A DNA stretch of 63,679 bases from positions 1-63,679 of IMG/VR virus record IMGVR_UViG_3300030102_005966, one strand, 5' to 3'. A program made the translations under genes and the position numbers. Each line of letters begins with the position of its first letter. Positions within the stretch are counted from its first letter, which is position 1. The notes under the pieces were generated by a model. The model worked only from the letters and a program-made list of their open reading frames with translations. It ran no database searches and was not told the origin of the DNA. Shown here piece after piece: positions 12,369 to 26,741 of the stretch. This stretch comes from a virus (taxonomy: Duplodnaviria; Caudoviricetes).

Positions 12369-12848
12369 TTATAGGGAGCCGCTCGCTAGGTCTACAACGG
12401 TATCGACAGCAAGGAACTTACGGGAGCCATCTGAACGGTATAGCGTGACATACGACTTGTCGCGCTTCATGGTAGCTCGCACTGGGTAACACTTGCCAGC
12501 ATTCGGTCCCCTCTTCGGAGGGTCTATGCAGTAGATGGCTCCGTAGTGCGTGGTTGCGTATCGCGGGAAGCCGGGGACGATGGTCGCCTGCAGTCCTTCC
12601 AGTATCTCCTCACGGGTCAGGTATTCGGATGGGGGCTCGCCAAACGTAGATTCGGCTAGGCGAGTAGAGTCGAACACCCACTTCTCGCCATTATCCTTGT
12701 ATACCTGTGCATACCACTTGCCGTTCTTAAATTGTTGTATGAGGCGTTTCCCCTCGCGCCACACGTTCCCGTCAGGCGTAAGGCAGTATTTCAAAGCCCC
12801 ATCTATAAATACACTATTTTCCGGTGCTGCTATAACGGTTGTAGCCAT
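12369..12848 (-). CDS. NUMOD4/HNH-associated-like protein without a recognisable HNH core
   Basis: Two repeats of an Y..T.dG.V/I...Y.V.L pattern (IVPGFPRYATTHYGAIY); no HNH motif seen. Confidence 0.4.
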   Translation of the reverse strand: MATTVIAAPENSVFIDGALKYCLTPDGNVWREGKRLIQQFKNGKWYAQVYKDNGEKWVFDSTRLAESTFGEPPSEYLTREEILEGLQATIVPGFPRYATTHYGAIYCIDPPKRGPNAGKCYPVRATMKRDKSYVTLYRSDGSRKFLAVDTVVDLASGSL

Positions 12849-12877
12849 TAGAGAAAATTATTGAATCTGCCCTATAT

Positions 12878-12951
12878 ATAAACTATTTCCTATATAGGTC
12901 TGTGGTTTATTCTACTTTAGAATAAATTACATACTGCTTCTCAGAAACTTT
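12878..12951. repeat. ~75-bp dispersed element with palindromic TTTATTCTA-N3-TAGAATAAA core, copy 1
   Basis: Aligns by eye with the reverse complement of 48074-48147. Confidence 0.65.
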
Positions 12952-12968
12952 TCAACTTATTGTTTCAC

Positions 12969-13229
12969 TCAAGACTTTTCTTCTTTCTGCATCTCTGCCC
13001 ACAACTCAGCCGCCCGTTTTAAACGTGAGCGGTGTAAGCGTTCCTTGTTCTTGCGGTAATATGCGCGGTTGTATTTGCGCGTATTCTCCAACCACTTGGG
13101 GTCTGTCTCCTTACGTAGCTCCTTACGCCTTTTTATCGCTTCCTTGTTTTCTTCGTAGTATTTCTTTTGGTAGGCTTTACGGGCATCCTTGTTTTCTTCG
13201 TAGTATTTTTGCTTGTCGGGATTGGGCAT
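12969..13229 (-). CDS. Small basic helical protein with KYYEENK repeats
   Basis: 86 aa; repeat type common in N-termini of phage endonucleases; TTGACA about 30 nt upstream. Confidence 0.55.
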   Translation of the reverse strand: MPNPDKQKYYEENKDARKAYQKKYYEENKEAIKRRKELRKETDPKWLENTRKYNRAYYRKNKERLHRSRLKRAAELWAEMQKEEKS

Positions 13230-13304
13230 CCTTATTCATATGCGCGGTTGAATTGGTGTCAAATTTTTTCTTATACTCTCATATATAGATATGCACACGC
13301 GCAC

Positions 13305-13952
13305 GAAAATACGCCACCCTACGGGTGGCGTATTCTGATAACTTCCGACAAGATGTCTAATCTCTAATCGAGATTAGACATAAAAAGATTTGCAACTCCC
13401 TTATAGTGAATACTTAACCCCTAAAGGGTTAAGTATTCAGGGTTCAGGAACCACCTCATCTCGCGTGTGTAGAGAGTGATTTCGCATGTGCACGGCTCTG
13501 CTAAAGCAGAGCGGGGGTTGTATTTCGTTTTGTTGATGACCCTCTCGTTCAGTGTGGAGTATATCCATACTCCACACTGAACCCTGCGCGTTGGTTAAAG
13601 GAACTTGTTCCTTTAACCCGATTCATTAACCATTTTGGATTCAATCAGTTTATATCAATGCATTGATATAAACACCTGTGCGCGAATACTGGAACAAGTT
13701 CCAGTATTTTCCTGAGCTGGAGGCAAGGCAATTTTGGGAAGTGAGCTGACCATCTACCGATGGTCGTGCGCGTTGCTCTGCTTGCAGAGCCAATTTAATC
13801 GGTGTTTTTAGCCTTTGGCTCTGCTAAAGCAGAGCGTCTGCGCGACAGTGCGTGGCTAACAAGTTAGCTCCTGCCCTGTAGCACTCAGCCCCGCCTAGCG
13901 CGGCGCGGATAAGGCGGAGGCGCGACCCAGTTATTTTCTCTGAAAATAACTG
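13305..13952. repeat. Array of about 13 sequence-diverse palindromes (non-coding)
   Basis: Examples: 13308-13334, 13353-13381, 13407-13439, 13547-13582, 13593-13618, 13648-13673, 13686-13709, 13928-13952; arms 6-16 bp. Confidence 0.9.
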
Positions 13953-13994
13953 AAAAAAAAGAATTTGCCAAGTTCGGCGTTTTGGTGCTAGTGT
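13953..13994 (+). promoter_or_regulatory. Candidate main early promoter
   Basis: A-tract, then TTGCCA-N18-TAGTGT with a TG extension; faces the 12-kb plus-strand block. Confidence 0.45.
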
Positions 13995-13999
13995 TTTTG

Positions 14000-14430
14000 G
14001 GTCATCGGAAATCGACTGACCGAGCCGAACGGTTCGCTGGCTGAACTTGATCGCCAGTCGCCGGGAGAGAGAGATCCTGCTCTCCTGCAAATTTGGCTAC
14101 TCATCCTTGATCCCTTCCTTGTTTGGTAAGGCAGATAGGATGAACCCTACGGGGTTTAGGATAGCTACTATGGTAATTGGAGAAGAATATCTTCGACTTT
14201 TGAGGCAATAAAGTTCCCTCATGGAGATGCACAGCATCTAATCGAAGTAACGATCCATGGTGGTAGTGAGCTGGGATGTCCATGCTTTAGCATGGTCATG
14301 AGTCTTGAAGACGCTCGTCTCCCTCACAGTTAACTGGCTAGGAAGCTGAATCATGTAGTGGATGATTAACTGTCCTACAAGGAAACATGTTGGTTAACAA
14401 TTAAACTCCTTCGGGAGACAATTTCAAAGT
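14000..14430 (+). ncRNA. Large structured leader/ncRNA candidate
   Basis: No credible plus-strand ORF; many nested helices with G-U pairs valid only on the plus strand, e.g. taggatag/ctgtccta enclosing gctactatgg/ccatggtggt and cttcga/tcgaag. Confidence 0.55.
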
Positions 14431-14448
14431 TTATAAAGATTTCATTTA

Positions 14449-14503
14449 AACCCGTTTGGATACAATCCAAACACAACCGCTACCTTCGGTAGCTTAGAAA
14501 GGA
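14449..14503 (+). repeat. Early leader element copy 1 (two hairpins + SD)
   Basis: aacccgtttggatacaatccaaacacaaccgctaccttcggtagcttagaaagga directly before the ATG. Confidence 0.9.
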
Positions 14504-14508
14504 ACATC

Positions 14509-15009
14509 ATGGCTAAAGCTAAGATGACCAACCGTAAAACAGCAACTAAGAAAGTTGCTAAGAAAGCTCCTGCCAAACGTAAAGTTTGGAAGAAGCGTCC
14601 AGCAACCAAGAAGGTTGCCAAGGAGACAGCAACCAAGAAGGTTGCTAAGAAGGTGAGTCCAAAGGACTCCACCAAGGAACGGAAGACCGCTCCGGTCTTC
14701 AACCCTCTCGCTACAGCATTTGCTGTAGCTAGGGAAGCAATCGAACTCTTCCGACAGGGAGAGATCGAAGACCTGAGTTTCCTTTACAAGGAACTCACTG
14801 CCTGTTGCTCCGCTAGGAGCAACGGAGACGGTAGCCTTGCATCTCAGATTGAGATGCAACAGTGGAGGCACAACTTTGCCTCCATCCTCTTCGGTATCCT
14901 TGAGGATACCTTGCAAACCGTCGAAGACGGTGGCTCCCTTGAGGAACTCAAGGGTAGGATAGTGGAACAAGTTCCACAAGCTGAGGACTTTGTATCCTCC
15001 ACCCTGTAA
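14509..15009 (+). CDS. First early protein; histone-H1-like basic N-terminus, acidic C-terminal domain
   Basis: ATKKVAK repeats; strong SD. Confidence 0.75.
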   Translation: MAKAKMTNRKTATKKVAKKAPAKRKVWKKRPATKKVAKETATKKVAKKVSPKDSTKERKTAPVFNPLATAFAVAREAIELFRQGEIEDLSFLYKELTACCSARSNGDGSLASQIEMQQWRHNFASILFGILEDTLQTVEDGGSLEELKGRIVEQVPQAEDFVSSTL

Positions 15010-15086
15010 AGGGTAGGAGTTCAAGGAACTCCGAGTCAGGGACACTGTAGGTAACTACAGTGTCCTTGCGTTGGAAGTCTTTGTTT

Positions 15087-15145
15087 AACCCGTTTGTATC
15101 CAAAGGATACAAACACAACCGCTACCTTCGGTAGCTTAGAAAGGA
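15087..15145 (+). repeat. Early leader element copy 2
   Basis: aacccgtttgtatccaaaggatacaaacacaaccgctaccttcggtagcttagaaagga. Confidence 0.9.
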
Positions 15146-15151
15146 TAGCTT

Positions 15152-15403
15152 ATGGATAAGCTATTGGAACTGTTGGATAACATTCTTAACGAATGTACTG
15201 ACAGTGCTGTTATACAGCAACTTGTTTACATGAGGTTGGCTTTAGTCAACCTCAGTAAACGAAAGGGTGGATGCCCTAAGTTCACAACTGTTTACAGTTG
15301 TGCGTTCGGTCATCTCTTTGAAGAGATGATGAAGCTACAGGATGCAGAACTCGAAGAGATCTGCATGGAACTTGATTCCCCTCATGAATATGAGGAAGAA
15401 TAA
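15152..15403 (+). CDS. Small acidic early protein
   Basis: 83 aa, follows a leader element. Confidence 0.7.
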   Translation: MDKLLELLDNILNECTDSAVIQQLVYMRLALVNLSKRKGGCPKFTTVYSCAFGHLFEEMMKLQDAELEEICMELDSPHEYEEE

Positions 15404-15590
15404 AGTGGTCATAAAGACCATCAACTCTCCGATTCAACGGAGAGTATGGCAGAGCATGACTCTTAGTCATGCTATGAAGCAAGCCCCAACTCCATCGGAG
15501 TTAAGGGCTAAGTCGGCAACCCAGTCCAGTAAGGGCTGGGTTGATTTCTTGGAGTCCAGTCTTACAGACTGTAAGCTGAAGCTGGACTGA
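15390..15590 (+). CDS. Hypothetical early protein (start uncertain)
   Basis: ORF overlapping the end of the upstream gene. Confidence 0.45.
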   Translation: MRKNKVVIKTINSPIQRRVWQSMTLSHAMKQAPTPSELRAKSATQSSKGWVDFLESSLTDCKLKLD

Positions 15591-15591
15591 A

Positions 15592-15645
15592 CACTCCACC
15601 CTCCACCCTCTACAGGGTGGAGGGTTCAACCTAAATTAGAAAGGA
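15592..15645 (+). repeat. Second leader class: accctccaccct/agggtggagggt hairpin + SD, copy 1
   Basis: Near-identical copy at 16111-16162; related forms at 22308 and 23941. Confidence 0.8.
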
Positions 15646-15654
15646 ACTTAGCCA

Positions 15655-15882
15655 ATGGCTAATTACATCAACACTTTACAGGAAGCTGTAAAGGAACATC
15701 ATGCTGACAAAGAGAGAGCAATCGAAACAATTAATTGTTTCATGAACTATCTCCAATCATCCAAGTTTTGGAATGATACCACCATCCAAGTTGTAGAAGT
15801 TGCTAGACTTCTACACAACATCAAGTCAGAACTTGATGTTGATAGATACGAACCCGATTGTATCCAAAAGATACAATCATAA
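15655..15882 (+). CDS. Hypothetical early protein
   Basis: 75 aa, SD AGAAAGGA. Confidence 0.7.
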   Translation: MANYINTLQEAVKEHHADKERAIETINCFMNYLQSSKFWNDTTIQVVEVARLLHNIKSELDVDRYEPDCIQKIQS

Positions 15883-15909
15883 CCGCTACCTTCGGTAGCT
15901 TAGGAAGGA
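15851..15909 (+). repeat. Early leader element copy 3 (overlaps the 3' end of the upstream gene)
   Basis: aacccgattgtatccaaaagatacaatcataaccgctaccttcggtagcttaggaagga. Confidence 0.85.
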
Positions 15910-15913
15910 ACTT

Positions 15914-16105
15914 ATGGCATCAAACTATAAGTTTTATAGACGACCAGCAATCGTCATTCGCTCCAACGCTAAAAGCGGTGGAGGCTATGCCCTTCAGAGG
16001 CAGAGCGATGAGCTTTATGAAAAGCTCATGGAGGCAGAGGCAGTGATAAGATCACTGCAAGCGAAGCGGAGACTTCGCATTCCCTTGGAAGACCAAGATT
16101 GGTAG
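15914..16105 (+). CDS. Hypothetical early protein
   Basis: 63 aa after a leader element. Confidence 0.7.
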   Translation: MASNYKFYRRPAIVIRSNAKSGGGYALQRQSDELYEKLMEAEAVIRSLQAKRRLRIPLEDQDW

Positions 16106-16110
16106 TCCAT

Positions 16111-16168
16111 ACTCTACCCTCCACCCTCTACAGGGTGGAGGGTATAACTTAAACAGAAAGGATACAAA
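16111..16168 (+). repeat. Second leader class, copy 2
   Basis: actctaccctccaccctctacagggtggagggt...agaaaggatacaaa. Confidence 0.8.
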
Positions 16169-16173
16169 GTATC

Positions 16174-16395
16174 ATGCCTTCTTTTAGAACCAAGACAGCA
16201 AGTCAGTCTCACCTCGATCTTCGTGAGGCTAAGAGGTCTTGCTGTATACCAAACCACCAAGATACTTGGTGGTTCAAAGACAAGCCTTGGAAGAAACCCA
16301 AGGCTTGGAGAGGATCGAAACTAGCCAAGAGGCTTTCCGCTAAAGCGGAAAGAAAACAAGCAAAGCTTAACTTAAACAGAAAGGATACAAAGTGA
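16174..16395 (+). CDS. Small basic early protein
   Basis: 73 aa, strong SD. Confidence 0.65.
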   Translation: MPSFRTKTASQSHLDLREAKRSCCIPNHQDTWWFKDKPWKKPKAWRGSKLAKRLSAKAERKQAKLNLNRKDTK

Positions 16396-16733
16396 GTATT
16401 GAGAATGATACCGTGACAGGTGGTGAATATCCCTCATGGGATAATCACACTGCAAAGTTATTCAGAGATGCTAAAGCATCTGCTGAACTATTTACTCCAC
16501 CACTTTATAAGTGGATGGAGTATGCTGATGATGATCGTAACCCCCTTGGGGTTACTGATGGTAAGGTTCTTAACCTTACCGAACCCGACCCCGGAGGGGT
16601 CGAAGAGATTGGCTTTGGTATTCCTATGGAATACCAAGATGACACTCCGTCATTTGAAACCCAACCAAAACTTAACCCTGAAGGGTTAAAGAACCTCAAA
16701 GAAAGGACACAAAGTAATGGATACTACGTATAA
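16392..16733 (+). CDS. Hypothetical early protein
   Basis: GTG start after agaaaggatacaaa. Confidence 0.65.
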   Translation: MSIENDTVTGGEYPSWDNHTAKLFRDAKASAELFTPPLYKWMEYADDDRNPLGVTDGKVLNLTEPDPGGVEEIGFGIPMEYQDDTPSFETQPKLNPEGLKNLKERTQSNGYYV

Positions 16734-16932
16734 CGGCTGGAGAAATCGCTCCACTTGGTTAGTTAATGTTTGGTTTAACCCAACATCCTCTGATCTTGAC
16801 TCCATAAAAGAAAGTCTTGATCAAAAGGTAGATGATCTACGTAACTCTAATGATATGCTGGACAACTTCCTCGCTGACCATATCAATTTAGATGAAATTG
16901 ATTGGGAGGAGTTAGCTGAGGCTCTCGCCTAG
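16717..16932 (+). CDS. Conserved small phage protein (YNGW.N..TW.VN.W family)
   Basis: N-terminal TYNGWRNRSTWLVNVWF motif; SD gaaagga. Confidence 0.7.
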   Translation: MDTTYNGWRNRSTWLVNVWFNPTSSDLDSIKESLDQKVDDLRNSNDMLDNFLADHINLDEIDWEELAEALA

Positions 16933-17058
16933 GTGCAGGCGAAAAACACCACCCTCTCGGAAAGGTGGTATAGCATTCTCTAACATAGTGTAGAGAATGC
17001 ATACCTCCTTTCCTTAGAGAGGGGGGTGAGCAACCGAATTTCAAAACCCCCTTTTGAT

Positions 17059-17112
17059 AACCCGTTTGGATTCACTCCAAACACAACTGCCACTACGGTG
17101 GCTTAGAAAGGA
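17059..17112 (+). repeat. Early leader element copy 4
   Basis: aacccgtttggattcactccaaacacaactgccactacggtggcttagaaagga. Confidence 0.9.
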
Positions 17113-17120
17113 CATAGCTT

Positions 17121-18251
17121 ATGGCTAAGTCAGAAGTGCCGATAAGAAAGTTATCGGTTTCAGAAGTTGGTGCTATTGCACCACTCACCTATCAGACAAA
17201 CAGATTCTTCTGTTTGCTGGGCAAGGGAGGCAATGGTAAAACTACCATCGCTTCCACCGTGGTAGCTCCGGCTATCGGAGCTACTAGGGCAATGATCCTG
17301 AACTTCTCAGGATCATCTCCGATGGAGGTTCTTGGTTACGGCATCCCCGATGCTTCTACAAGAGACCTTTGGTTCTCTTGTCCTGAGAATCTCCCTACTA
17401 GGGAGAGGATCGGGGATGAGAAAATCCTTCTCGTCCTTGACGAGTTCACTGACTGGGACTTAGCAGTCCAGTCACTGTTCAAGTCTTGCTTCAACCCTGT
17501 TGATGGTGAGGCGAAGATCGGGACTCACGTTCTTGGTAAGAACGTCAAGATCATGGTGACTGGTAACCGTCGCCAAGACGGTTCCAGTAAGTCTTCGGTT
17601 CTGTCTGCTCCACAAGTGGAGAGACAGTTTACTTACATCCTTGAACCCACTCTTGATGAGTGGATTCAGTGGGTAGCCGACGAAGGCTTCGGTGACTCCG
17701 CCATTTTGACATATCTTGATATGGCAAATGGTCTTGAGGGAGTTGACCATTTCAATCCTATGATTGGAACTTGGGAAGGTGCTCCTCATCCATGTCCTAG
17801 GACATGGGATGCCGCTATCCGGTCAGTGTCTTTGACATCTGACCAGAACCTCCAGTCTATCCTTCTTGAAGGATCGGTTGGAATTGAAGCAGGCTCTGCC
17901 TGTATGTCCTTCTTGAATACTGTAGCAACTATGTTGCCAGTATACAAAAGGATTAGGGATGGAGTGGAAGAGATGGCACTCGACTCTAATGGAGTCGAAC
18001 GCTCACCCCAAGACCAGTATGGTCTTGTCCACTGTGCTCTCCGCAATCTCCTGAAGGAGACTGCGTCAGACCCTGAGGCAGCAGTAGTCGAAGACTCTGC
18101 TGGTAATACTGACATCGACTGGTTCGTCGATAGATTCCTTCTTGCTGGCAAGAATGAGATCGGTGAATGGGGCTACTCCGCTACTAAGCGGAATGGAGTT
18201 CCCATCAACAACCACCCTAAGCGTGAGCGTCTCCAAGGATTTGGAGACTAA
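17121..18251 (+). CDS. MoxR/CbbQ-like AAA+ ATPase
   Basis: Walker A GKGGNGKT, Walker B LLVLDEF, sensor TGN, C-terminal PCPRTW motif. Confidence 0.8.
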   Translation: MAKSEVPIRKLSVSEVGAIAPLTYQTNRFFCLLGKGGNGKTTIASTVVAPAIGATRAMILNFSGSSPMEVLGYGIPDASTRDLWFSCPENLPTRERIGDEKILLVLDEFTDWDLAVQSLFKSCFNPVDGEAKIGTHVLGKNVKIMVTGNRRQDGSSKSSVLSAPQVERQFTYILEPTLDEWIQWVADEGFGDSAILTYLDMANGLEGVDHFNPMIGTWEGAPHPCPRTWDAAIRSVSLTSDQNLQSILLEGSVGIEAGSACMSFLNTVATMLPVYKRIRDGVEEMALDSNGVERSPQDQYGLVHCALRNLLKETASDPEAAVVEDSAGNTDIDWFVDRFLLAGKNEIGEWGYSATKRNGVPINNHPKRERLQGFGD

Positions 18252-18350
18252 GCGCACTCACACTTCCCTCTTAGGAGGGGGGTTAGTAACTACTCTTTAT
18301 GCAGTAAAGAGTAGTTACACCCCCTCCGTTAAGAGAGGGAAGATAAACAA

Positions 18351-18403
18351 AACCGTTTGGATACAATCCAAACACAACTGCTACCTTTGGTAGCTTAGAA
18401 AGG
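18351..18403 (+). repeat. Early leader element copy 5
   Basis: aaccgtttggatacaatccaaacacaactgctacctttggtagcttagaaagg. Confidence 0.9.
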
Positions 18404-18410
18404 GTTAGTT

Positions 18411-19307
18411 ATGGCTAACACTGTTATCGTCGATGACAAAAAGATCGACACCAAAATGCGAAGCATAGTGAAATGCACTTTCACTGCTTCTTGTCCAGCA
18501 GCTACGGTGGTTCACCGTGTTGCCACTGAGAAAGTCAGTGACATCTACAACTCCAGCGACGAAGTCGCTTGGGTAAAGGTAGCTCCGATTCCCCGTAAGG
18601 GGAGTGTCTACGGTAGCTTAACCTCTGTTATTAACTCTACTGGAGTTAAGATCAGAGACATGGGCTTACCTTGTAAGACCGGAGGGACTTACATCCAGTC
18701 TGCTGATATCGAAGAGGTTATTACCATCTTCGATGAAGGTCAGAAGGAACTTGATCGACTTATCAAAGTCGTTCTTCCGGCTGAGTGGGACGGTATCGTA
18801 GCTAAAGCTACGAAGGATATGGGGGAACTTGCTAAAGCAGTTCCCATCCCAACTGCTGAAGTGTTCGGTTCCAAGTTTGGAATGGACATCATTTGGGAGC
18901 ACAGCCCTCAAGATATTGAGGGGACTGTAATGAAAGGAGTTGCCAACGAAGTTGCGGCTCGGATCAGAGCACAATCAAAGAAGTCCACTAAGGACATGTT
19001 TGTCACTGCTCATGGAGCACCTATTCAGGAAGTCATTACCTTCCTGACTGACACAATCAAACACCTTAGTGGTGGTAAGAGGTTGGGTCAGAAGAGGTTC
19101 GACAATGCCGCTAAAGCGGCTCAGAAGTTAGCGAAGAAAAACATTCTCGATCTCCCTGAGATTGAGAGTGTTATCCAAGCTATGGCTTCGATTGGTGCAA
19201 CCAATCGTGATGACATTGTCACTGACAGTGACAAGGATAAAGTCATCGAGAAAGTGAAACACGCTACCAAGGTAGCGTTGACTGCCAAGGCAGACCTTGG
19301 TCTGTAG
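18411..19307 (+). CDS. Helical partner protein of the AAA/vWA module (DUF3150-like by position and character)
   Basis: 298 aa between the AAA and vWA genes; family call is tentative. Confidence 0.5.
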   Translation: MANTVIVDDKKIDTKMRSIVKCTFTASCPAATVVHRVATEKVSDIYNSSDEVAWVKVAPIPRKGSVYGSLTSVINSTGVKIRDMGLPCKTGGTYIQSADIEEVITIFDEGQKELDRLIKVVLPAEWDGIVAKATKDMGELAKAVPIPTAEVFGSKFGMDIIWEHSPQDIEGTVMKGVANEVAARIRAQSKKSTKDMFVTAHGAPIQEVITFLTDTIKHLSGGKRLGQKRFDNAAKAAQKLAKKNILDLPEIESVIQAMASIGATNRDDIVTDSDKDKVIEKVKHATKVALTAKADLGL

Positions 19308-19309
19308 TT

Positions 19310-19364
19310 AACCCGTTTGGATACAATCCAAACACAACTGCCACCTCCGGTGGCTTAGAAAGGA
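19310..19364 (+). repeat. Early leader element copy 6
   Basis: aacccgtttggatacaatccaaacacaactgccacctccggtggcttagaaagga. Confidence 0.9.
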
Positions 19365-19369
19365 ACACT

Positions 19370-20953
19370 ATGAGTGTTGCTGTTAGAGCGAAAGCTCGTG
19401 AAATTCCTAGCTACGTAGTAGCTGGGTCAAAGATATCCGTTCCCATTAATGGGAAGGACATCCTTGCTAGGGCATTGAGAGTAGTCAGAGACTACTGTCC
19501 ACTTGCCTACGGCAAGTTGGTAGCCATGGACTGGTTCGGCACTGACCGAACTGCCTACGGTGCTACCGATGGTAGGAAGCTTTTGCTTAATCCCAAGGGA
19601 TTAGCGAAGCTGGCAGAGACATCCGACCCTGTCGGACTGACTGCCTTCTTGCTTCTCCATGAAGCTTACCATGCTTTGCTTGGTCATGGTCATAGACTGA
19701 AAGGTCTTAACCACGATTTAGCAAATCGTGCCGCTGACTACTCAATCAACTGGTTGATTAGTCAGGAGAACAACAAGTATGATAGGGAACACTTCCCTAT
19801 CATCGAAGGTGCTCTGCTTGATTCTCGCTTTGACAATATGTCAACCATCGAGATATACCGTCAGTTGCTCAAGGAGCAACCCGAACCACCTCAGGGTGAC
19901 AACCCTGAGGGGGGTGGAGGTGGAGAACGGATCAACGTCAACGGCACTCCTAATCCCGAAGGGGATTCGGAGGACGGTGATGGTGACGGAGACACCGAAG
20001 GTGGTAGCACCGAAGGTGAGGACACTGGAAGTGGAAACACCGAAGGTGACGAAGACGGTGAAGGCACTGAAGGTGGAGACACCGAAGGTGACGGCGGGGA
20101 TGACACCGAAGGTGACGACTCCACTAGTGGAGGAGGAGCTGACACCAACCCCGGCAAGCCGAAGTCTGACAGTGAAATTCTCGGAGATGACTTTGCTGGC
20201 AAGGGAGGTCAAGATACCTTCGAGCCGAAGGCTAATCCGAAGGAGAAGAAATCTCAGGAAGAGATTGAGAAGGAGATTGATCAGCACAACGAAAAGGTTG
20301 TGTTGATTGATCGGATGGCTGAATCCTGTGGGATTGGTGGCTCTGCTGGAACACGTTCTGTTGCAGAACAGAACAGTGTTACAAAGAAGCCCTTTGACTG
20401 GGCTTCCTATCTCATCCACTGGATGTCAGCAAGGCTGGATGAAGGTTGGAACAAGATGTTCAACACTCCGATGTATTCCTCTACAGGAATGGTTTGTGCT
20501 GGACGAGAGAGAAAGTCAGCTGGAAAGCTGGTCATCGTCGTAGACGATAGTGGATCTATCTATGATAGACTTCTCAAGTTGTTCTTGCTCTGTGTCCAAG
20601 AAGTCTTGGACGAGATGAAGCCTGAGGTTATACACCTCATTGCTGTAGACAACCACTATCCTACAGAGGATAGACAGTGGGAGTTAAGACCGGGGGACAC
20701 CGTCCCCGACAGACTCCCCAATGGTGGTGGAGGCACTGCTTTTCAGCCAGCATTTGACTGGGTGGAGGACAACTGTCCTGACTGTGATGGTCTTGTCTAC
20801 ATCACTGATGGTCAGAGCTGGGATATCAGTGATATCCGCGAGCCGGACTATCCGGTCTTTTGGTTGAGCTGGTGGCTCAACAAGGATAGCTTCCCCTTTG
20901 GGGACGCTCACCGGATTGATCCATCAATCGCCAGTTACGACCACGGTCGGTAA
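19370..20953 (+). CDS. DUF2201-like metallopeptidase + acidic linker + vWA domain protein
   Basis: ATDG, HEAYH, N.AAD..IN; long G/D/E/T linker; MIDAS VDDSGS, GGGGT, YITDG. Confidence 0.85.
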   Translation: MSVAVRAKAREIPSYVVAGSKISVPINGKDILARALRVVRDYCPLAYGKLVAMDWFGTDRTAYGATDGRKLLLNPKGLAKLAETSDPVGLTAFLLLHEAYHALLGHGHRLKGLNHDLANRAADYSINWLISQENNKYDREHFPIIEGALLDSRFDNMSTIEIYRQLLKEQPEPPQGDNPEGGGGGERINVNGTPNPEGDSEDGDGDGDTEGGSTEGEDTGSGNTEGDEDGEGTEGGDTEGDGGDDTEGDDSTSGGGADTNPGKPKSDSEILGDDFAGKGGQDTFEPKANPKEKKSQEEIEKEIDQHNEKVVLIDRMAESCGIGGSAGTRSVAEQNSVTKKPFDWASYLIHWMSARLDEGWNKMFNTPMYSSTGMVCAGRERKSAGKLVIVVDDSGSIYDRLLKLFLLCVQEVLDEMKPEVIHLIAVDNHYPTEDRQWELRPGDTVPDRLPNGGGGTAFQPAFDWVEDNCPDCDGLVYITDGQSWDISDIREPDYPVFWLSWWLNKDSFPFGDAHRIDPSIASYDHGR

Positions 20954-20994
20954 CCAATCGTCCTAAGCATGACATTAAACTGCTTACTTATACT

Positions 20995-21033
20995 AACCCG
21001 TTTGGATATAATCCAAACACAAAACAGAAAGGA
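20995..21033 (+). repeat. Early leader element copy 7 (first hairpin + SD only)
   Basis: aacccgtttggatataatccaaacacaaaacagaaagga. Confidence 0.8.
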
Positions 21034-21038
21034 AGCCA

Positions 21039-21257
21039 ATGGCTTATGAAAAAATAGCGGTTAAGATTAACCGTAGAGATGGAGATGGAGTGTATTACAT
21101 ACAGTCCATAAAGGGATCAGTAACCCTTACGGTTATCATTGATAACCAAGACGAAACGCTGAGAGTAGGTGACGAAGTGTCTGAGAAGGAGGTTGAATAC
21201 CTCGTTGATCGGCATAGGTCTTACTCTGTAACTATAAGCAGTGTGAAAGGAGGTTAA
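21039..21257 (+). CDS. Hypothetical early protein
   Basis: 72 aa, strong SD. Confidence 0.7.
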   Translation: MAYEKIAVKINRRDGDGVYYIQSIKGSVTLTVIIDNQDETLRVGDEVSEKEVEYLVDRHRSYSVTISSVKGG

Positions 21258-21260
21258 GTT

Positions 21261-21689
21261 ATGTGGATACATAGTGAAAAAGGATTCCTCTCTATAGTAG
21301 AGTTCATTGGGAGTCCCGATAACTTGCTTGTAAGAGCAAGGTATGACGGAGACATTGAACGTATCTTTGGAGAAGATACTTATGTGATGGCTGGAGCTGG
21401 CTCTGACTATGAATTCCGGGCTGTTGTTCCTAGGGAACAAGTGTCTGCTGTCATTCATAGAATGGTTGACGAAATTAGTTACCCTAATTTTAAAGACCGG
21501 ATGGAGAACGTCCATCGTCGCCAACATTCGGACTACCTAGGTAGTATCCACCCTGCTATCAAACCATCAACTGATATGGTTGAAGTAAAGCAAAATGCTT
21601 TACATAGAGTTTGGGAAGTTATGTTCCAAGCTCAACAAGAAGCTGACGCTTGCATAGACTGGACTAATGTAGTCGAGACTAGTGAGTAA
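21261..21689 (+). CDS. Conserved hypothetical protein (MW....GF.S.V...L.VRAR...DY.FR...I.Y.NFK family)
   Basis: Recognisable motif pattern; SD aaaggaggt. Confidence 0.7.
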   Translation: MWIHSEKGFLSIVEFIGSPDNLLVRARYDGDIERIFGEDTYVMAGAGSDYEFRAVVPREQVSAVIHRMVDEISYPNFKDRMENVHRRQHSDYLGSIHPAIKPSTDMVEVKQNALHRVWEVMFQAQQEADACIDWTNVVETSE

Positions 21690-21697
21690 ATAAACAA

Positions 21698-21750
21698 AAC
21701 CGTTTGGATACAATCCAAACACAACTGCCACTACGGTGGCTTAGAAAGGA
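21698..21750 (+). repeat. Early leader element copy 8
   Basis: aaccgtttggatacaatccaaacacaactgccactacggtggcttagaaagga. Confidence 0.9.
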
Positions 21751-21755
21751 TCAAC

Positions 21756-22295
21756 ATGAAAGATGTTGAAACTAAAGTAGCCGATTACATCGGTAAAAAT
21801 CCTGCATTTAGAATGCAGGTAGCTAAGTTCCTGCTGTCACAGGAACTATTAGAAGAGGGTTATACCCTGAGTTCTTCGGAACCGGAGGTGACCACTCCCC
21901 CCAAACAAGAGAGGGTAAAGAACACGACCACTACTGGTCATGTTCTCTACTGGAGCAACAAACTTCTGAATGACAGAGCAGAGGAAGTTGCTAGGATAAT
22001 TCAGGAACTTGTTCCTGACACCACCCTTGATGGATGCCGTGGTAAAAACACCAACGGTATGAAGTCGGTTGTTCACAACCTGTGGCGAGGCAAGAAAGCA
22101 GTGGATGCTGTTGAACTGGCGTTAGGTGAACCTAACTCCATAAAGTCCCGAAGGACTATTGGAAGACAAACCGCTAGTCGGTTTGTCAATCGCTTCCTAG
22201 TTCCTTACTTCCTCCTTGAGGACAGGGGACACTTCGATAAGGCAGACCCTTCCAAGGGAATGGGTCTTGAGGATTTAATTGCTTCAAACCTGTAG
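21756..22295 (+). CDS. Hypothetical early protein
   Basis: 179 aa after a leader element. Confidence 0.7.
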   Translation: MKDVETKVADYIGKNPAFRMQVAKFLLSQELLEEGYTLSSSEPEVTTPPKQERVKNTTTTGHVLYWSNKLLNDRAEEVARIIQELVPDTTLDGCRGKNTNGMKSVVHNLWRGKKAVDAVELALGEPNSIKSRRTIGRQTASRFVNRFLVPYFLLEDRGHFDKADPSKGMGLEDLIASNL

Positions 22296-22377
22296 CAATT
22301 AATCCACACTCCACCCTGTCTCCTCCACACTGGAGGAGGCAGGGTATTAAACAACAAACAAGAAAGGATACAAAACA

Positions 22378-22698
22378 ATGAGTGTTTTGACAAAGACCGT
22401 GAAGACGGAAACAAAAGAACCGCTACCGAGTGTAGCGGAATTATTAGAACTGCTGGAAAACATCAGCAGTCACATGAACGAAGCCAGTAGTTTACTGGGG
22501 GATGTTGAAGGCTATGTCGAAGACGTAGTCGAAGAGGTTAAGGGTATAGACGGGGAGAACAAATCCTATGAGGTAGAGCAGTTGCTCTACGAGAATGTCA
22601 TACTCCAAGCTGATAGCATCAGCATCGACAATGAAATTGGCGAGGTCAATGATATTGTTAATAGCCTCCATAATGATATGGAGGTAGGTGATGAGTGA
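22378..22698 (+). CDS. Highly acidic small protein
   Basis: 106 aa, Glu/Asp-rich, SD agaaaggatacaaaa. Confidence 0.7.
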   Translation: MSVLTKTVKTETKEPLPSVAELLELLENISSHMNEASSLLGDVEGYVEDVVEEVKGIDGENKSYEVEQLLYENVILQADSISIDNEIGEVNDIVNSLHNDMEVGDE

Positions 22699-22855
22699 AT
22701 CAACAGAGGACTTCTTAGAAAGGTTTGAGCAATTCTTAATGAAAGAAGTTGGCGAGAACTGGTACTACGAATTCACAATGGAAGAAGACTCAACCTTATA
22801 CTTCAAGGTATTGAATGTGTGGGGTGAGCAGTTCAAGGAGGACAACGATGAGTAG
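22691..22855 (+). CDS. Small acidic protein, 54 aa
   Basis: Manual: MSESTEDFLERFEQFLMKEVGENWYYEF...; SD ggaggt; overlaps both neighbours. Confidence 0.55.
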   Translation: MSESTEDFLERFEQFLMKEVGENWYYEFTMEEDSTLYFKVLNVWGEQFKEDNDE

Positions 22856-22961
22856 CAAAATAGAAATGATACTTTCGTTGATCACGCTACCCACTATAGG
22901 AATAGTGGGGTTCTTGGTGATGATCATCAAAGAGAAACTAAACAGAAAGGATACAAAGTGA
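22848..22961 (+). CDS. 37-aa single-TM peptide
   Basis: Manual: MSSKIEMILSLITLPTIGIVGFLVMIIKEKLNRKDTK*; SD aaggagg. Confidence 0.5.
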   Translation: MSSKIEMILSLITLPTIGIVGFLVMIIKEKLNRKDTK

Positions 22962-23287
22962 AGATTATAAATATACTTGTAGGAGATGCAGATCAAGCTA
23001 CCGACATTTGTCGGATGCTTAATCACGCCGAAGCAGTAGGAGAACTCGACTTCTCCTTTGACGTATCAGTAACAGATACTGAATCGGATGAAGATGAAGA
23101 ACCGGAGGTTGTCATGTCATGGGATAGAGAGATGTTCTTTGAGGATGACGAAGTCACCGATGAGGAGTGGGCTGAGTGTTGTGCTAAAGCAAATGGCATG
23201 GACTGCTCCGGAATATGGGAGGATGTGGCTTTTACAATCGAAACTCATCTAAAGGAGATGAGGGAAGCAAAGAAAGGAGATGCCTAA
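22958..23287 (+). CDS. Acidic hypothetical protein
   Basis: 109 aa, GTG after agaaaggatacaaa. Confidence 0.7.
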   Translation: MKIINILVGDADQATDICRMLNHAEAVGELDFSFDVSVTDTESDEDEEPEVVMSWDREMFFEDDEVTDEEWAECCAKANGMDCSGIWEDVAFTIETHLKEMREAKKGDA

Positions 23288-23444
23288 CATCAAGATGTTC
23301 ATCTACAAATCGGGCGACTACTGGAAGATATGTTCTTCCAACAACCCAACCAATGTGATTACTCTTGATGACCCGAAGGGTGCAAAGAGAATTGCTTGGT
23401 GCTTGGGCTGGAAGTTGGTTCGCAAAAAGGAATGGGACTCTTAG
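23280..23444 (+). CDS. Small protein, 54 aa
   Basis: Manual: MPNIKMFIYKSGDYWKICSSNNP...; agaaagg SD. Confidence 0.45.
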   Translation: MPNIKMFIYKSGDYWKICSSNNPTNVITLDDPKGAKRIAWCLGWKLVRKKEWDS

Positions 23445-23457
23445 TCCTGCCAATATA

Positions 23458-23551
23458 TTTAAGACCAGTGGTAGCCCTGCTGGTGCATAGCTTTGTAATG
23501 GCGGATGTCATTACCTATGTGCTGGCGGGGTTACTTATGGTCTATAGAAAC
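23458..23551 (+). ncRNA. Long G-U-rich RNA hairpin
   Basis: ggtagccctgctggtgcatag pairs with ctatgtgctggcggggttact through many G-U wobbles, valid on the plus strand only. Confidence 0.6.
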
Positions 23552-23605
23552 TGCATGTTAATGCAACAGCAACAAGATAAAACAAGATAAAAGGAGATAA
23601 TTAAA

Positions 23606-23926
23606 ATGAAGAAAAAATATTACACACTTTTTGTTACGGAAGAAAGTGATTATCATTGTGAAAGGATAGTCGCAACTTACGAGGCTGAAGAAAACTCAAA
23701 CCCAAAAGATCTTTTTGATCTATTCTTAGAAGAACAAAATGAGAAGAACGCTTGTTGGAGTGCAACAGAGGGAAAAATACCTAACAACAACTCATCGTAT
23801 GTAGTCGAAGGAATAACAGTATCAGACTCTCCTGTATACTTCATCCATTTAGATGAAGTAGATGGAAGTAAATACAATAAGGGTTTAGGACTCATTCACG
23901 ATCCATCAAACAGACTAGGATTTTAG
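23606..23926 (+). CDS. Hypothetical protein
   Basis: 106 aa, SD aaaggag, more AT-rich than neighbours. Confidence 0.7.
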   Translation: MKKKYYTLFVTEESDYHCERIVATYEAEENSNPKDLFDLFLEEQNEKNACWSATEGKIPNNNSSYVVEGITVSDSPVYFIHLDEVDGSKYNKGLGLIHDPSNRLGF

Positions 23927-23984
23927 TCCCGAATATTAATAGCCCCCTCTTCGGAGGGGGCATCCAAAACAGAAAGGATACAAA

Positions 23985-24299
23985 GTGAGTAAACAAAAAG
24001 AAATTCATGTAGAATACGAGTTGATTTTGCGGTATCAAACCGACACTGAACTCGTCTTAGACGTAAGAAAAGATACTGTCGATTCAGATGGCGAACCTAT
24101 AGAAGAAGAGTATGTCGAAGGATTTTTCTACGACCATCGGGATCTCAAGAAAAACTATAAAGATGCTGTCACAGAATTCCTTGAACTAAAAGAAAAATAT
24201 CCCGATGCTCATGTCACCGATGATATTCTAGAGGAAGCAACAGAGTTATTAGCAATCCGTTACGGCAAAGGCTCATGGGAGGTAGCATCAAATGGGTGA
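23985..24299 (+). CDS. Acidic hypothetical protein
   Basis: 104 aa, GTG after agaaaggatacaaa. Confidence 0.7.
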   Translation: MSKQKEIHVEYELILRYQTDTELVLDVRKDTVDSDGEPIEEEYVEGFFYDHRDLKKNYKDAVTEFLELKEKYPDAHVTDDILEEATELLAIRYGKGSWEVASNG

Positions 24300-24627
24300 A
24301 CGAAATCCCAAGAACAAATCAGTCTACGTGGTGGAGCTTGAGCTTGCTGTTTCAGAACGGGGGTTCTTCAAGAAGAACAACCCTGACTACAAGGAAGGTC
24401 AACCATGCGTCTACGTAGGCATGACCGGACGCGAACCAACCGAAAGGTTTGCAGTCCATAAGAGTGACAGCCCGAAGGGAAGCCGAAAGGTAAGACGCTT
24501 CGGGATCAAACTCCTACCGGAGTTATACGAACACCTCAATCCCATGACATGGGATGAGGCTACTAAGCAAGAAAAAGAACTGGCTGACACCCTCCGTAGC
24601 AAAGGCTACGGAGTGGTGCAGTCTTAA
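24292..24627 (+). CDS. GIY-YIG-like nuclease
   Basis: SVYVVEL...CVYVGMTG..P.ERF..H...E..LA motif pattern. Confidence 0.7.
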   Translation: MGERNPKNKSVYVVELELAVSERGFFKKNNPDYKEGQPCVYVGMTGREPTERFAVHKSDSPKGSRKVRRFGIKLLPELYEHLNPMTWDEATKQEKELADTLRSKGYGVVQS

Positions 24628-24643
24628 CGAGAAAGGATACAAA

Positions 24644-25057
24644 ATGGTTAGGCTACTTTATAGTGATGTCCCTCGTATTTACGAGAAAGACCAACGGTGG
24701 GAAAACTCCATGATACCTTATGCTGATCATTACGTTATGAGTAATGGAAATCTTACAAGGCTCGAAGGAACAGACCCCGGACACAGCTACGGTTACTTTG
24801 CTACAACCGTAGCCCAAGGAATAGTAATGGACACTCCACCGGAGATGGAACATCGCAATCAAAGCCCAATCCCCTGCATATACGAAGATAACTGGATGCA
24901 TTTCAAGTGGGAAGTTATCGACCAACTGCTCCCGATCTATGATCGTGCTGACGATTGGACTAGCGAAGTTGGTTTGGATAAAGAGGTAGTGGATCAGACA
25001 GAGTGGGACTCATGGTGTAAACCTGCTGATGGTTGGGATTCACTTGATGTCTATTAA
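24644..25057 (+). CDS. Paralog 1 of the E.NWM.F....D.LLPI.D family
   Basis: Start re-assigned to the ATG after gaaaggatacaaa; shares the motif with the next two genes. Confidence 0.7.
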   Translation: MVRLLYSDVPRIYEKDQRWENSMIPYADHYVMSNGNLTRLEGTDPGHSYGYFATTVAQGIVMDTPPEMEHRNQSPIPCIYEDNWMHFKWEVIDQLLPIYDRADDWTSEVGLDKEVVDQTEWDSWCKPADGWDSLDVY

Positions 25058-25074
25058 AATAGAAAGGATACAAA

Positions 25075-25566
25075 ATGGTTAAGCTAACAAAACAGACTAG
25101 TGGTGGATATAATCATCCACGATTAATCCGAAACAATAAAGGGGACACGGTAAATTCTTTTACGGTGTATAACTCTGAGTGGTATGACGAACAACTTGCT
25201 GACTGCAGTGGCGACTTGATGTATACTCGCGGTGAAACAGCGATTCCGGAGGAAGATATTCTGAATGCAAAAGAATCCGGTCGGTCGCGTCGGTGGCGAC
25301 CCGACGAAAGTAACTGGATGGACTTCCAAATATCTGTTCATGATGAACTTCTTCCCATCTACGATGATTGTGTGAGGGACAATGATTGGTATTGCAGAAA
25401 GCGAAGGGGGTGTCACTCTTCCTTCGCCATCGGTGAGGGAAGTATTCCTGCACCAGCAGAGGGAGACTTCAACCACGCTAGAAGAACCCATACCTATTAC
25501 CAATCAGTGGCAGAGATGAGGGAAGCAGACAAAAAAGCTGAAGAAAAAAGGATACAAAATGGTTAA
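25075..25566 (+). CDS. Paralog 2 of the E.NWM.F....D.LLPI.D family
   Basis: ESNWMDFQISVHDELLPIYDD. Confidence 0.7.
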   Translation: MVKLTKQTSGGYNHPRLIRNNKGDTVNSFTVYNSEWYDEQLADCSGDLMYTRGETAIPEEDILNAKESGRSRRWRPDESNWMDFQISVHDELLPIYDDCVRDNDWYCRKRRGCHSSFAIGEGSIPAPAEGDFNHARRTHTYYQSVAEMREADKKAEEKRIQNG

Positions 25567-25894
25567 GCTAACGACGACGAGATATCCCCCTAGTCCTGTT
25601 ACAGGGAAGAGGGGTGGAGGTTTCCGGACTGTATATAATACAGACTGGATAAAAACTCCCCACTACTATGGGGCTACGGATGTTATCCAACATACTGAAT
25701 GGAAATGGGGGCGCGGGGCTACCTATCTCTTGGAGATTCCGGAGGAAGCTATTGATAACAAAAAAGAAAGCTTTCCTAATGAAAGTAATTGGATGAACTT
25801 CCAAGTTCATGCTCAAGATGAACTTCTTCCCATCTTCGATGATTATGCGAGAGAGATTTATGAGAATGCTCACCGGGATGGAGTTCCATTCTAA
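25559..25894 (+). CDS. Paralog 3 of the E.NWM.F....D.LLPI.D family
   Basis: ESNWMNFQVHAQDELLPIFDD. Confidence 0.7.
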   Translation: MVKLTTTRYPPSPVTGKRGGGFRTVYNTDWIKTPHYYGATDVIQHTEWKWGRGATYLLEIPEEAIDNKKESFPNESNWMNFQVHAQDELLPIFDDYAREIYENAHRDGVPF

Positions 25895-26040: not shown

Positions 26041-26081
26041 ACCCCCTTGTCTACCTCACGGTAGGCAAGGGGGTTTTTTTT
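26041..26081 (+). terminator. Intrinsic terminator ending the early block
   Basis: cccccttgtctacc-tcac-ggtaggcaaggggg followed by a T9 run. Confidence 0.85.
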
Positions 26082-26698: not shown

Positions 26699-26741
26699 AC
26701 GGCTGCGCGGGCAGCGTAATCGTTTTTGTATCCAAAGTCCT

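Follow-up and report, generated by a model that had tools for sequence, protein, structure and literature searches.

The DNA analysed here is a complete virus record of IMG/VR (IMGVR_UViG_3300030102_005966; Duplodnaviria, Caudoviricetes), and the whole stretch of 63,679 bp, for which CheckV gives a completeness of 100%, is referred to below as the window. Its genes include those for a family-A DNA polymerase, a primase, a helicase, a PD-(D/E)XK nuclease, a large terminase and a MoxR-like ATPase, and the contigs that hold near-identical DNA are labelled as marine metagenomes. A close relative was sought among 50,697 deposited phage genomes and none was found, the top DNA match covering 1% of the query. 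The subject of this report is a repeated element of about 55 bp, formed by two consecutive hairpins and a ribosome-binding sequence, that lies on the + strand of the early region, between 14449 and 21750, in front of eight unrelated genes. In the bacterial genomes scanned there were 0 matches to the pattern of this element and 0 relatives of the ATPase.

All eight copies listed in the original prediction were recovered, seven of them full and one half, with c5 starting at 18350 instead of 18351 and c8 at 21697 instead of 21698. In the following list hairpins 1 and 2 are abbreviated as HP1 and HP2, and a third hairpin, contiguous with the element and involving the start codon, as HP3; the scores come from a covariance model (R1) that was derived from the seven full copies and applied without filters to both strands of the whole window.

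14449-14503, + strand: c1, full copy (with HP3 to 14530), before the open reading frame (ORF) of a 166-residue Lys/Ala-rich protein, ATG 14509; 86.9 bits. HP1 is GTTTGGAT-aca-ATCCAAAC, the linker ACACAAC, HP2 GCTACC-ttc-GGTAGC and the Shine-Dalgarno (SD) sequence TTAGAAAGGA; HP3 lies at ~14501-14530.
15087-15145, + strand: c2, full copy (with HP3 to 15166), before an 83-residue ORF, ATG 15152; 79.1 bits. HP1 is longer, with 10 bp (GTTTGTATCC-aaa-GGATACAAAC), and HP2 is GCTACC/GGTAGC; HP3 lies at ~15144-15165.
15851-15909, + strand: c3, full copy (with HP3 to 15936), before a 63-residue ORF, ATG 15914; 74.3 bits. HP1 is GATTGTATC-caaaa-GATACAATC, and the linker ATCATAAC gives the TAA stop codon of the upstream 75-residue ORF (15655-15882); HP3 lies at ~15907-15935.
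17059-17112, + strand: c4, full copy (with HP3 to 17131), before the MoxR-like ATPase gene (17121-18251); 75.8 bits. HP1 has 7 bp and the loop ttcac, and HP2 is GCCAC-tacg-GTGGC; HP3 lies at ~17111-17131.
18350-18404, + strand: c5, full copy (with HP3 to 18422), before a 298-residue ORF (18411-19307); 83.1 bits. The HP2 loop is ttt; HP3 lies at ~18401-18422.
19310-19364, + strand: c6, full copy (with HP3 to 19381), starting 3 nt past the upstream stop codon and preceding a gene for 527 residues (19370-20953); 86.3 bits. HP2 is GCCACC-tcc-GGTGGC and HP3 is AACACU-AUG-AGUGUU.
20995-21033, + strand: c7, half copy (with HP3 to 21045), before a 72-residue ORF, ATG 21039; 42.1 bits. HP1 (loop ata, reading TATAAT) is followed by ACACAAAACAGAAAGGA, and HP2 is absent; HP3 lies at ~21033-21045.
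21697-21750, + strand: c8, full copy (with HP3 to 21773), starting 8 nt past the upstream stop codon and preceding a 179-residue ORF, ATG 21756; 79.4 bits. HP2 is GCCAC-tacg-GTGGC; HP3 lies at ~21747-21773.

The common layout of these copies is AA(C/A)CCG, HP1, ACA(C/T)AAC(C/T), HP2 and TTAGAAAGGA. In the window HP1 is AT-rich, with a stem of 7-10 bp and a loop of 3-5 nt, and HP2 is GC-rich, with a stem of 5-6 bp and a loop of 3-4 nt; only two stem forms of HP2 are present, which alternate among the copies, and the copies are mosaic in their make-up. The geometry is fixed and agrees with the closeness to a start codon that had been described, given that the last base of the element lies 5-9 nt before the ATG in 8/8 copies; the changes in pairing that had been quoted for both hairpins are likewise correct. 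On the other hand, the sequence that ends the element is present as announced but does not belong to it alone: its final ten bases are the strong SD of the early block, and TTAGAAAGGA is found also at early genes that lack the hairpins. Similarly, the statement that no -35 or -10 lies inside the element stands for the -35, and no TGn is found upstream; nevertheless, the loop region of HP1 reads as a -10-like hexamer, TACAAT in c1, c3, c5, c6 and c8 and TATAAT in c7. This hexamer, the start-codon hairpin and a 12-mer of HP1 that recurs in hairpin-free contexts are three features that the original prediction does not mention.

A 26-nt core of the element has 6 matches at ≤3 mismatches and 0 in each of 100 shuffles, which excludes chance as its origin. 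The R1 model gave 64 matches in the window at E≤10, but only the seven full copies (74-87 bits) and c7 (42 bits) were strong, the next-best match reaching 17.7 bits inside a coding region. With Rfam 15 there were 0 matches in the whole window at gathering thresholds and 0 in positions 13900-22000 at E≤1, so that the element, which the original prediction had not recognised as a described family, matches none of the families there.

A search of IMG/VR with the single ATPase protein returned nothing; nevertheless, an alignment of ATPase homologues led to 33 related loci, in phages of ~60 kb. The closer ATPase homologues are 92%, 74%, 72% and 64% identical to the one in the window. Among 38 related loci searched with R1, the element was found only in a record of 60,101 bp (G001), whose ATPase is 72% identical to that of the window. 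Upstream of this ATPase gene, G001 has a double hairpin that has diverged, with other stem sequences, one U-G pair and a 9-nt loop, in which CACAAC and TTAGAAAG are unchanged; the next two genes retain AACC, HP2 and TTAGAAAGG, and four small early genes have one GC hairpin immediately 5' of TTAGAAAG. The early blocks of G001 and the window have just four ORFs in common, and the gene of G001 that corresponds to the 527-residue gene behind c6 is cut by the contig end; the 527-residue protein matches phrog_1314, and we take it to be vWA-like. A scan of JGI metagenomes with a pattern of linker, HP2 and SD gave 16 loci, 10 of which align to the window or to G001. One of these, L118, comes from a strain that is 83-97% identical to the window over 14678-23407 and carries eight full copies. 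The other six (L120-L123, L125 and L128) do not align to the window or G001, and three of them have only R1 matches of 17-21 bits; they were not accepted as copies. In contrast to these close strains, the relatives with ATPases ≤48% identical have another kind of repeated cassette upstream of the ATPase gene, consisting of AAAAGAATTGAC, 16-17 nt, a -10-like hexamer, CTCAACCCTGAAAC and the ATG, in which inverted repeats of variable sequence often bracket the -10.

Pattern searches of IMG/VR gave 0 matches to the exact HP1 pattern, 49 single matches to a looser one, and 22 matches to linker, HP2 and SD, where the hairpin is present only in the G001 copy. The R1 search of the looser-pattern loci covered the 49 IMG/VR loci and the six metagenome loci, and 4 of the former reached E≤0.01, at 21-26 bits. 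One of these four, in a 12.7-kb viral contig (L033, 3517-3556, - strand), is a half-copy look-alike, formed by CCCCG, the 8-bp HP1-like hairpin GTTTGACA-tcac-TGTCAAAC, ACACAAC, an SD and an ATG. This contig has no protein in common with the window at E≤1e-4 and no second copy, and the look-alike is not distinguishable from chance.

In the seven full copies of the window, 98% of 100 cells (16 pairs) are paired; three of the 16 pairs are altered on both sides and 0 on one side only. The wider set comprised 26 copies (18 distinct) from the window, the close strains and the relative with the 72%-identical ATPase; in it 99.2% of 250 cells are paired and 5 of 14 pairs have changed on both sides (22 cells), one pair of HP1 being seen as U-A, A-U and C-G. 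In 500 column shuffles neither the percentage of pairing nor the covariation score was ever as high as observed, and pairing fell to 20-40% when partner columns were shifted by 1-3; the count of further pair types, on the other hand, was not above the shuffles (260 of 500). RNAalifold returned the same two helices with the same 14 pairs. The portable structured module that had been proposed is thus upheld by covariation in 18 distinct sequences. Orthologous copies show the same behaviour: in HP1 of c3 an A-U pair of the window is C-G in L118, in HP2 of c2 and c3 a U-A pair is C-G, and the HP2 of c4 and c8 are wholly different in L118. One pair of HP1 is broken by an A-A in c5 of L118. When each leader was folded with 30 nt of coding sequence, both hairpins returned and the SD was unpaired, with z-scores of -2.8 to -5.6 in 8/8 copies. 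These comparisons indicate that the pairing itself is under selection.

The same set is informative about the strand and about the part that is recognised. Among the wobble pairs of HP1, the G001 lineage (2 distinct sequences) has U-G and the half copy of another strain, L129, has G-U, and no A-C was seen; read on the template strand these wobbles become C-A mismatches. The loops of HP2 read TTC, TCC, TTT, AAA, TAAC, TACG or TTTA in the window and the strains, and those of HP1 have 3 to 9 nt. Such freedom in sequence and size argues that the loops are not the recognised part.

Downstream of the SD, all the element-led genes (8/8) have a third hairpin with the AUG in or beside its loop. The minimum free energy in a 36-nt window ranges from -4.9 to -9.1 kcal/mol for these eight genes, with a mean of -7.7, versus a mean of -1.7 for 12 other early genes in the same 36-nt window, only 2/12 of which fall below -4 kcal/mol; this comparison used mononucleotide shuffles. 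The AUG is the exact three-base loop of HP3 in c6 and in the orthologue of c4 in a further locus, L131. In HP3 of c2, a C-G pair of the window is U-A in L129 through a synonymous change of a Lys codon (AAG to AAA) together with a change in the spacer. A hairpin over the start codon can matter in RNA only.

Comparison of the window with its close strains indicates that genes are gained, lost or replaced at the cassettes, as the analogy with the promoter-early stem-loop (PeSL) cassettes of T4-type phages, drawn in the original prediction, had led one to expect. The 75-residue ORF at 15655-15882 is replaced in L118 by an unrelated ORF of 123 residues, and the limits of this replacement are the preceding SD and the first base of c3. 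L118 has an extra ORF of 127 residues between two copies of a hairpin-free ribosome-binding repeat, and another locus (L117) has an extra ORF of 118 residues, led by AACC, HP2 and SD, between two copies of a G-rich hairpin. In one 287-nt contig of run X2, 16144 is joined to 16368 through a 26-nt repeat, and 223 bp with a 73-residue ORF are gone. Orthologous sites also differ in that they contain either the whole of HP2 or nothing of it: L118 has a full copy where the window has the half copy c7, and L129 has a half copy where the window has the full c1. Of the 20 sequencing runs listed for this DNA, none is of RNA; the contigs of four DNA runs over this region are short and end at the repeats. 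Two further joints (14512>15086 and 15085>14449) were discarded, having only 25-49 nt on one side, inside repeats.

The following features bear on how the early block is transcribed and translated.

13957-13996, + strand: candidate host-type promoter, formed by an A-tract, TTGCCA, an 18-nt spacer ending in TGC, and TAGTGT; found by eye and not listed by the consensus scan.
16148-25570, + strand: eight copies of a hairpin-free ribosome-binding cassette, AACAGAAAGGATACAAA[A/G]TG (repeat family D3).
26041-26074 and 26197-26235, + strand: two hairpins resembling intrinsic terminators, with T7-8 tails, downstream of the last gene start with a strong SD (25559).
26306-26736, both orientations: five copies of the 12-mer TTTGKATMCAAA, in non-coding DNA after the early terminators and without a hairpin partner arm.

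The strong SDs of the early type are nearly confined to 14.5-25.6 kb on the + strand, and the two terminator-like hairpins are the likely end of the early transcription unit; a further strong intrinsic terminator lies at 27876-27910. The upstream half of the candidate at 13957 resembles the AAAAGAATTGAC cassettes of the relatives, and sequences of this kind occur in the window only at 13957 and 26843. Together with the terminators, this distribution fits one long host-transcribed unit from ~13.96 to ~26.1 kb. The consensus scan gave no promoter-like site at any element. The end of an ORF reaches into c3, and stop codons lie only 3 and 8 nt before c6 and c8, a position that places these three copies inside read-through transcripts. 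The 223 bp missing in one strain are those between the first two D3 copies. The core of the D3 cassette, GGATACAAA, is also the 3' arm of the long form of HP1 in c2, so that HP1 looks like an SD plus spacer paired with its own complement.

The reading that we favour, with a probability of roughly 0.45, is that the element makes up the upstream portion of a modular cassette that combines a structured mRNA leader with translation initiation, in a long host-transcribed early operon, and that it is also a recombination linker. Starting at a promoter near 13.96 kb and stopping at the terminators of 26.0-26.2 kb, the host RNA polymerase would make a + strand RNA in which each cassette would fold into HP1, a single-stranded ACACAAC, HP2, an open SD (UUAGAAAGGA) and a third hairpin with the AUG in or next to its loop. 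HP1 and HP2 would shield the ribosome site from whatever sequence lies upstream and would guard the downstream message against decay from the 5' end, while the CA-rich linker and the SD, kept open between hairpins, could form a standby landing site from which the 30S subunit captures a partly closed start codon. With insulation, protection and a standby site supplied in this way, any ORF placed behind the cassette would need no separate promoter to be expressed; in turn, the DNA repeat of ~55 bp would provide the homology for gene swapping. We infer that RNA is the active form and that it is made as a single long transcript: the start-codon hairpin, the G-U wobbles of HP1, the free loops and the placement of c3, c6 and c8 argue for + strand RNA, and the lack of a detected RNA polymerase gene, the sigma70-type cassettes of the relatives and the intrinsic terminators that close the block argue for transcription by the host. 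We consider it only slightly less probable that this promoter-free, three-hairpin, plug-and-play translation cassette is a new RNA family. Thus, of the expression element proposed in the original prediction, structure and portability are supported, and processing or stabilisation, translation enhancement and protein binding are all candidates for its function.

Several points weigh against this interpretation. There is one plausible host promoter (13957) for a unit of ~12 kb, and the consensus scan shows no excess of promoter-like sites (24 found, 19.8 expected). The relatives have promoters at the same position, which argues for a promoter-like function. The preference for RNA over DNA depends on two independent wobble pairs and the start-codon hairpin, and the wider-set alignment was fitted to the covariance model, a procedure that favours structure. 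Many copies in one genome are near-identical, so that their conservation may be due in part to gene conversion. In addition, the single-stranded flanks AACCCG, ACACAAC and TTAG are more conserved than the stems, which points to sequence-specific recognition by some protein, and the occurrence of the 12-mer in hairpin-free sites, together with c5 of L118, suggests recognition at the level of DNA.

The observations on the 12-mer are the basis of the alternative that survives best, though we still regard it as unlikely, namely that HP1 is an operator, or an overlapping pair of operators, for a phage DNA-binding regulator such as the helix-turn-helix (HTH) protein encoded at 49968-50573, its palindrome being read as duplex DNA to control the early genes. 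The near-palindromic 12-mer TTTGKATMCAAA occurs 19 times at ≤1 mismatch versus 0.84 expected; six occurrences are in HP1, five form the non-coding cluster listed above, and one (49938-49949) lies in the spacer of a sigma70-type promoter, TTGAAA-N17-TATAAT, just upstream of the HTH gene. Another was noted at 48037-48048. In G001 (L092-L094; forward at 6190, 42356 and 44252) the motif is again in a promoter spacer, TTGACT-N17-TACATT, and in the control region, and the HP1 of G001 retains ATTGGATACAAA despite a different 3' arm. In c5 of L118, the change that breaks a pair of HP1 makes the 12-mer perfect. Being over-represented, clustered and placed in promoter spacers, the 12-mer is probably recognised by a DNA-binding phage regulator, perhaps the HTH protein, as an operator or iteron, and the cluster at 26306-26736 could be a replication origin. 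Nevertheless, the arms of HP1 change symmetrically (U-A, A-U and C-G in one pair, G-C and U-A elsewhere) and the stems grow from 7 to 10 bp, as pairing predicts and fixed half-sites do not; the TTTG and CAAA arms are separated by 9-13 nt in HP1 and by 4 in the free 12-mers; the elements show no evident promoter that an operator could control; and HP2, HP3 and the fixed distance to the SD are left unexplained. Recognition of HP1 as DNA and selection on its pairing are compatible, and HP1 may also be read at the DNA level while the cassette acts as an RNA leader.

Another characteristic of this genome is an ORF of 5,938 residues (27912-45728, - strand), with an HExxH motif at residue 1964 and relatives of 4.7-5.0 thousand residues in other ~60-kb phages. 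Searches of this protein against Pfam and PHROGs (the latter with both halves) gave 0 families, and phmmer against PDB gave 3 weak matches to repeat proteins. With tblastn against the 50,697 phage records, residues ~3407-3644 showed ~40% identity over ~230 residues to phage proteins annotated as ADP-ribosyltransferase, and the last ~700 residues resembled virion structural proteins of the Cellulophaga phages phi18:3 and phi19:3, with Pseudoalteromonas phages also matched; no virion RNA polymerase (vRNAP) was among the matches. From its sequence, it looks like an injected multi-domain ('polyvalent') virion protein.

The presence of such a protein brings to mind the phages N4 and LUZ7, and a less probable reading than the operator is that the element is a DNA-hairpin promoter of their type, extruded and read by an RNA polymerase that the phage would bring along in its virion, possibly as a domain of the 5,938-residue protein, so that each copy would start its own transcript. 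In N4, the promoter has a 3-nt loop, G-G-A, with a sheared G:A pair and its centre at -11, and specific loop bases are needed (PMC4496689); the early and middle promoters of LUZ7 are hairpins with G starts 13-15 nt downstream (PMC9163698). The element resembles both in its short GC-rich hairpin with conserved flanks, in its location before early genes and in the company of a giant virion-type protein. Thus HP2 is a GC-rich, short stem-loop whose template-strand loop is GAA in c1-c3 and GGA in c6, and the conserved G of TTAG lies 11 nt from its loop centre, a purine at the distance given for N4 (PMC4496689); variable stem length and flank spacing would also suit a recognised structure better than duplex DNA. 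In contrast to N4 and LUZ7, no vRNAP or RNAPII homologue was detected here: the giant ORF and 38 other ORFs scanned gave no RNA polymerase signal with Pfam, PHROGs, PDB or tblastn, all of which are sequence-based tests that a very remote fold could escape. Moreover, the conserved 3-nt template loop G-G-A of N4 is not shared by HP2, whose loops have 3-5 nt and vary on the template strand (GAA, GGA, AAA, TTT, GTTA, CGTA and TAAA), where N4 needs specific bases (PMC4496689). The wobbles favour the non-template strand and would be C-A mismatches in an extruded template, the eight copies over 7 kb each abut an SD, a transcript starting at the G of TTAG would have its SD at +3 to +8, and the relatives of the giant protein use sigma70-type cassettes. 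We consider it quite improbable that the hairpins are promoters read as extruded DNA by an unrecognised polymerase domain within the 5,938-residue protein. If they were, N4-style injection of a polymerase and hairpin promoters would exist in a lineage unrelated to Schitoviridae, with one promoter per gene cassette, as a second, independent lineage with injected-polymerase transcription.

The cassettes of the relatives raise the question of whether the element is itself of the PeSL type (PMC2839356; PMC4122927). PeSL cassettes of T4-type phages combine a sigma70 promoter, AT-rich in its upstream region, with a stem-loop that lies between the -35 and the -10 or overlaps the -10, and they end in an SD and ATG (PMC2839356). 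The AAAAGAATTGAC cassettes of the distant relatives follow that published layout (PMC2839356), so that the analogy drawn in the original prediction has gained PeSL-like promoter-plus-stem-loop cassettes at the same position. In L060-L071 they were also seen upstream of other early genes besides the ATPase gene; the genes there have no SD, which suggests hosts of a different kind from the host of the window phage. The element shares with PeSL cassettes a short conserved intergenic sequence with a stable stem-loop, an SD and start codon at its 3' end, a position before unrelated small ORFs, and gene insertion, deletion and replacement at the cassettes between close strains. According to this reading, which we regard as still less likely, each copy would be a weak host promoter with its -10 in the HP1 loop, and read-through would be attenuated by the stem-loop behind it. 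The -10-like hexamers of six copies agree with it, as does the arrangement AAAAGAATTGAC-N16-17-(-10) with inverted-repeat arms around the -10 in the relatives, one of which (L063) shares CACAACTGCCA...GTGGCT with c4; a start ~7 nt downstream of the hexamer would place HP2 at the 5' end of the RNA. However, the sigma70-like promoter that defines the PeSL type is not recognisable inside the element: no -35, TGn or conserved AT-rich upstream element precedes any copy, the hexamer lacks its final T in c2 (TACAAA), in c3 and c5 of L118 (TACAAG and TACAAA) and in G001 (TACAAA) and is TTCACT in c4, and the copy types differ by 5 nt in how far it lies from HP2. The element has, in addition, a pair of hairpins before the SD and another one across the AUG, its sequence is unrelated, and it belongs to a ~64-kb phage with a giant virion protein and not to a T4-type myovirus; attenuation by the stem-loop was measured for PeSL, whereas the element is known from its sequence.

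Equally unlikely is that the repeats have no role in expression, being either linkers for recombination or small selfish palindromes that gene conversion keeps uniform, or else terminators of the opposite strand against antisense read-through from the late genes: the gene exchanges at the cassettes, the mosaic copies, the coming and going of HP2 as a unit and the - strand arrangement of hairpins followed by GGTTGTGTTT, which is flagged as terminator-like, would suit it, but 8/8 copies keep one orientation and register with respect to SD and ATG, pairing and linker are kept in the relative with a 72%-identical ATPase and different stem sequences, the wobbles favour the + strand, and the T-tract of the - strand is interrupted and opens with two purines.

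Other candidates were rejected. A C(UUCG)G tetraloop in HP2 is contradicted by the register, which gives a 3-nt loop in most copies; an integron attC site, by the lack of a core-site match and of an integrase; a sigma54 or MotA-box-type promoter, by hexamers that do not match; and a tRNA-like element, called by ARAGORN at 16029-16125 (- strand), by its undetermined anticodon. A site for RNase III was discarded because 7-10 bp (HP1) and 5-6 bp (HP2) are too short.

The RNA leader that we propose can also be compared with signals of well-known phages. The put sites of HK022 and the nut sites of lambda are leader RNAs with one or two hairpins and a conserved single-stranded box that act in cis in an early operon; an operon has one such site, shortly after its promoter, and none is known to be fused to a ribosome site. 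The element is similar in having hairpins and a conserved single-stranded box in an early operon, but it is present in eight copies, each joined to a ribosome site, and without an Rfam match of any kind. Phage early mRNAs also provide the RNase III sites of T7, irregular duplexes of about 20 bp between genes, and 5' stem-loops that act as stabilisers. In T4, RegB cleaves at the SD sequences of early genes (PMC3014915). These processed or stabilised messages resemble the present case in that repeated RNA signals in the translation-initiation regions of early genes govern message life and translation; in contrast, the stems here have 5-10 bp, the SD is AGAAAGGA and not GGAG, and no nuclease gene was identified.

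Some other features of the window deserve mention. Between the divergent late (-) and early (+) blocks there is a non-coding region of 1.6 kb (12850-14450) with dense perfect inverted repeats and GCGCG motifs and no Rfam match; it contains the promoter-like site at 13957, and a leader of ~450 nt precedes c1. The first early gene (14509-15009, + strand) encodes the 166-residue protein, whose N-terminal third consists of Lys/Ala-rich repeats of the ATKKVAKK type with a histone-H1-like look; it has no PHROG match and is a candidate nucleic-acid-binding protein. At 15040-15068, 16974-17001 and 18288-18321, between a stop codon and the element that follows, there are long perfect hairpins (10-15 bp) that lack T-tails; they may protect the 3' end of the upstream message or be sites at which it is processed. 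Further downstream, an alternating purine-pyrimidine tract with GTGTGC-type units and two 23-nt direct repeats (26745-26790) directly precede the promoter-like site at 26843-26877. A 54-nt repeat with 74% identity, centred on the palindrome GTTTATTCTA...TAGAATAAAC, has one copy at 12898-12951, upstream of gene 12369-12848 (- strand), and another at 48092-48145, where it separates genes 48150-49925 and 47061-48053 (both - strand); this repeat is a candidate for a late promoter or a regulator site. Finally, the ends of the record (1-801 and 62888-63679) are 72-100% identical, so that the ORF of ~243 residues at each end is a diverged duplicate, and the final 77 bp are an exact copy of 725-801; the two ends are either a true pair of paralogues or two strain variants joined in assembling a circularly permuted genome.

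If the element is the leader that we favour, this phage would express a newly acquired gene by a solution at the level of RNA and not by a promoter. Whatever flanks it, such a self-contained leader would keep the presentation of the ribosome site constant, and would at the same time give the homology by which genes move in and out, so that it would be an RNA counterpart of the PeSL cassettes; the relatives still have the promoter form, which leaves the switch between the two forms open to comparative study. The element would also supply a compact, naturally occurring insulator of ribosome-binding sites, and uncultured marine viruses would have yielded a new structured motif whose covariation is real.

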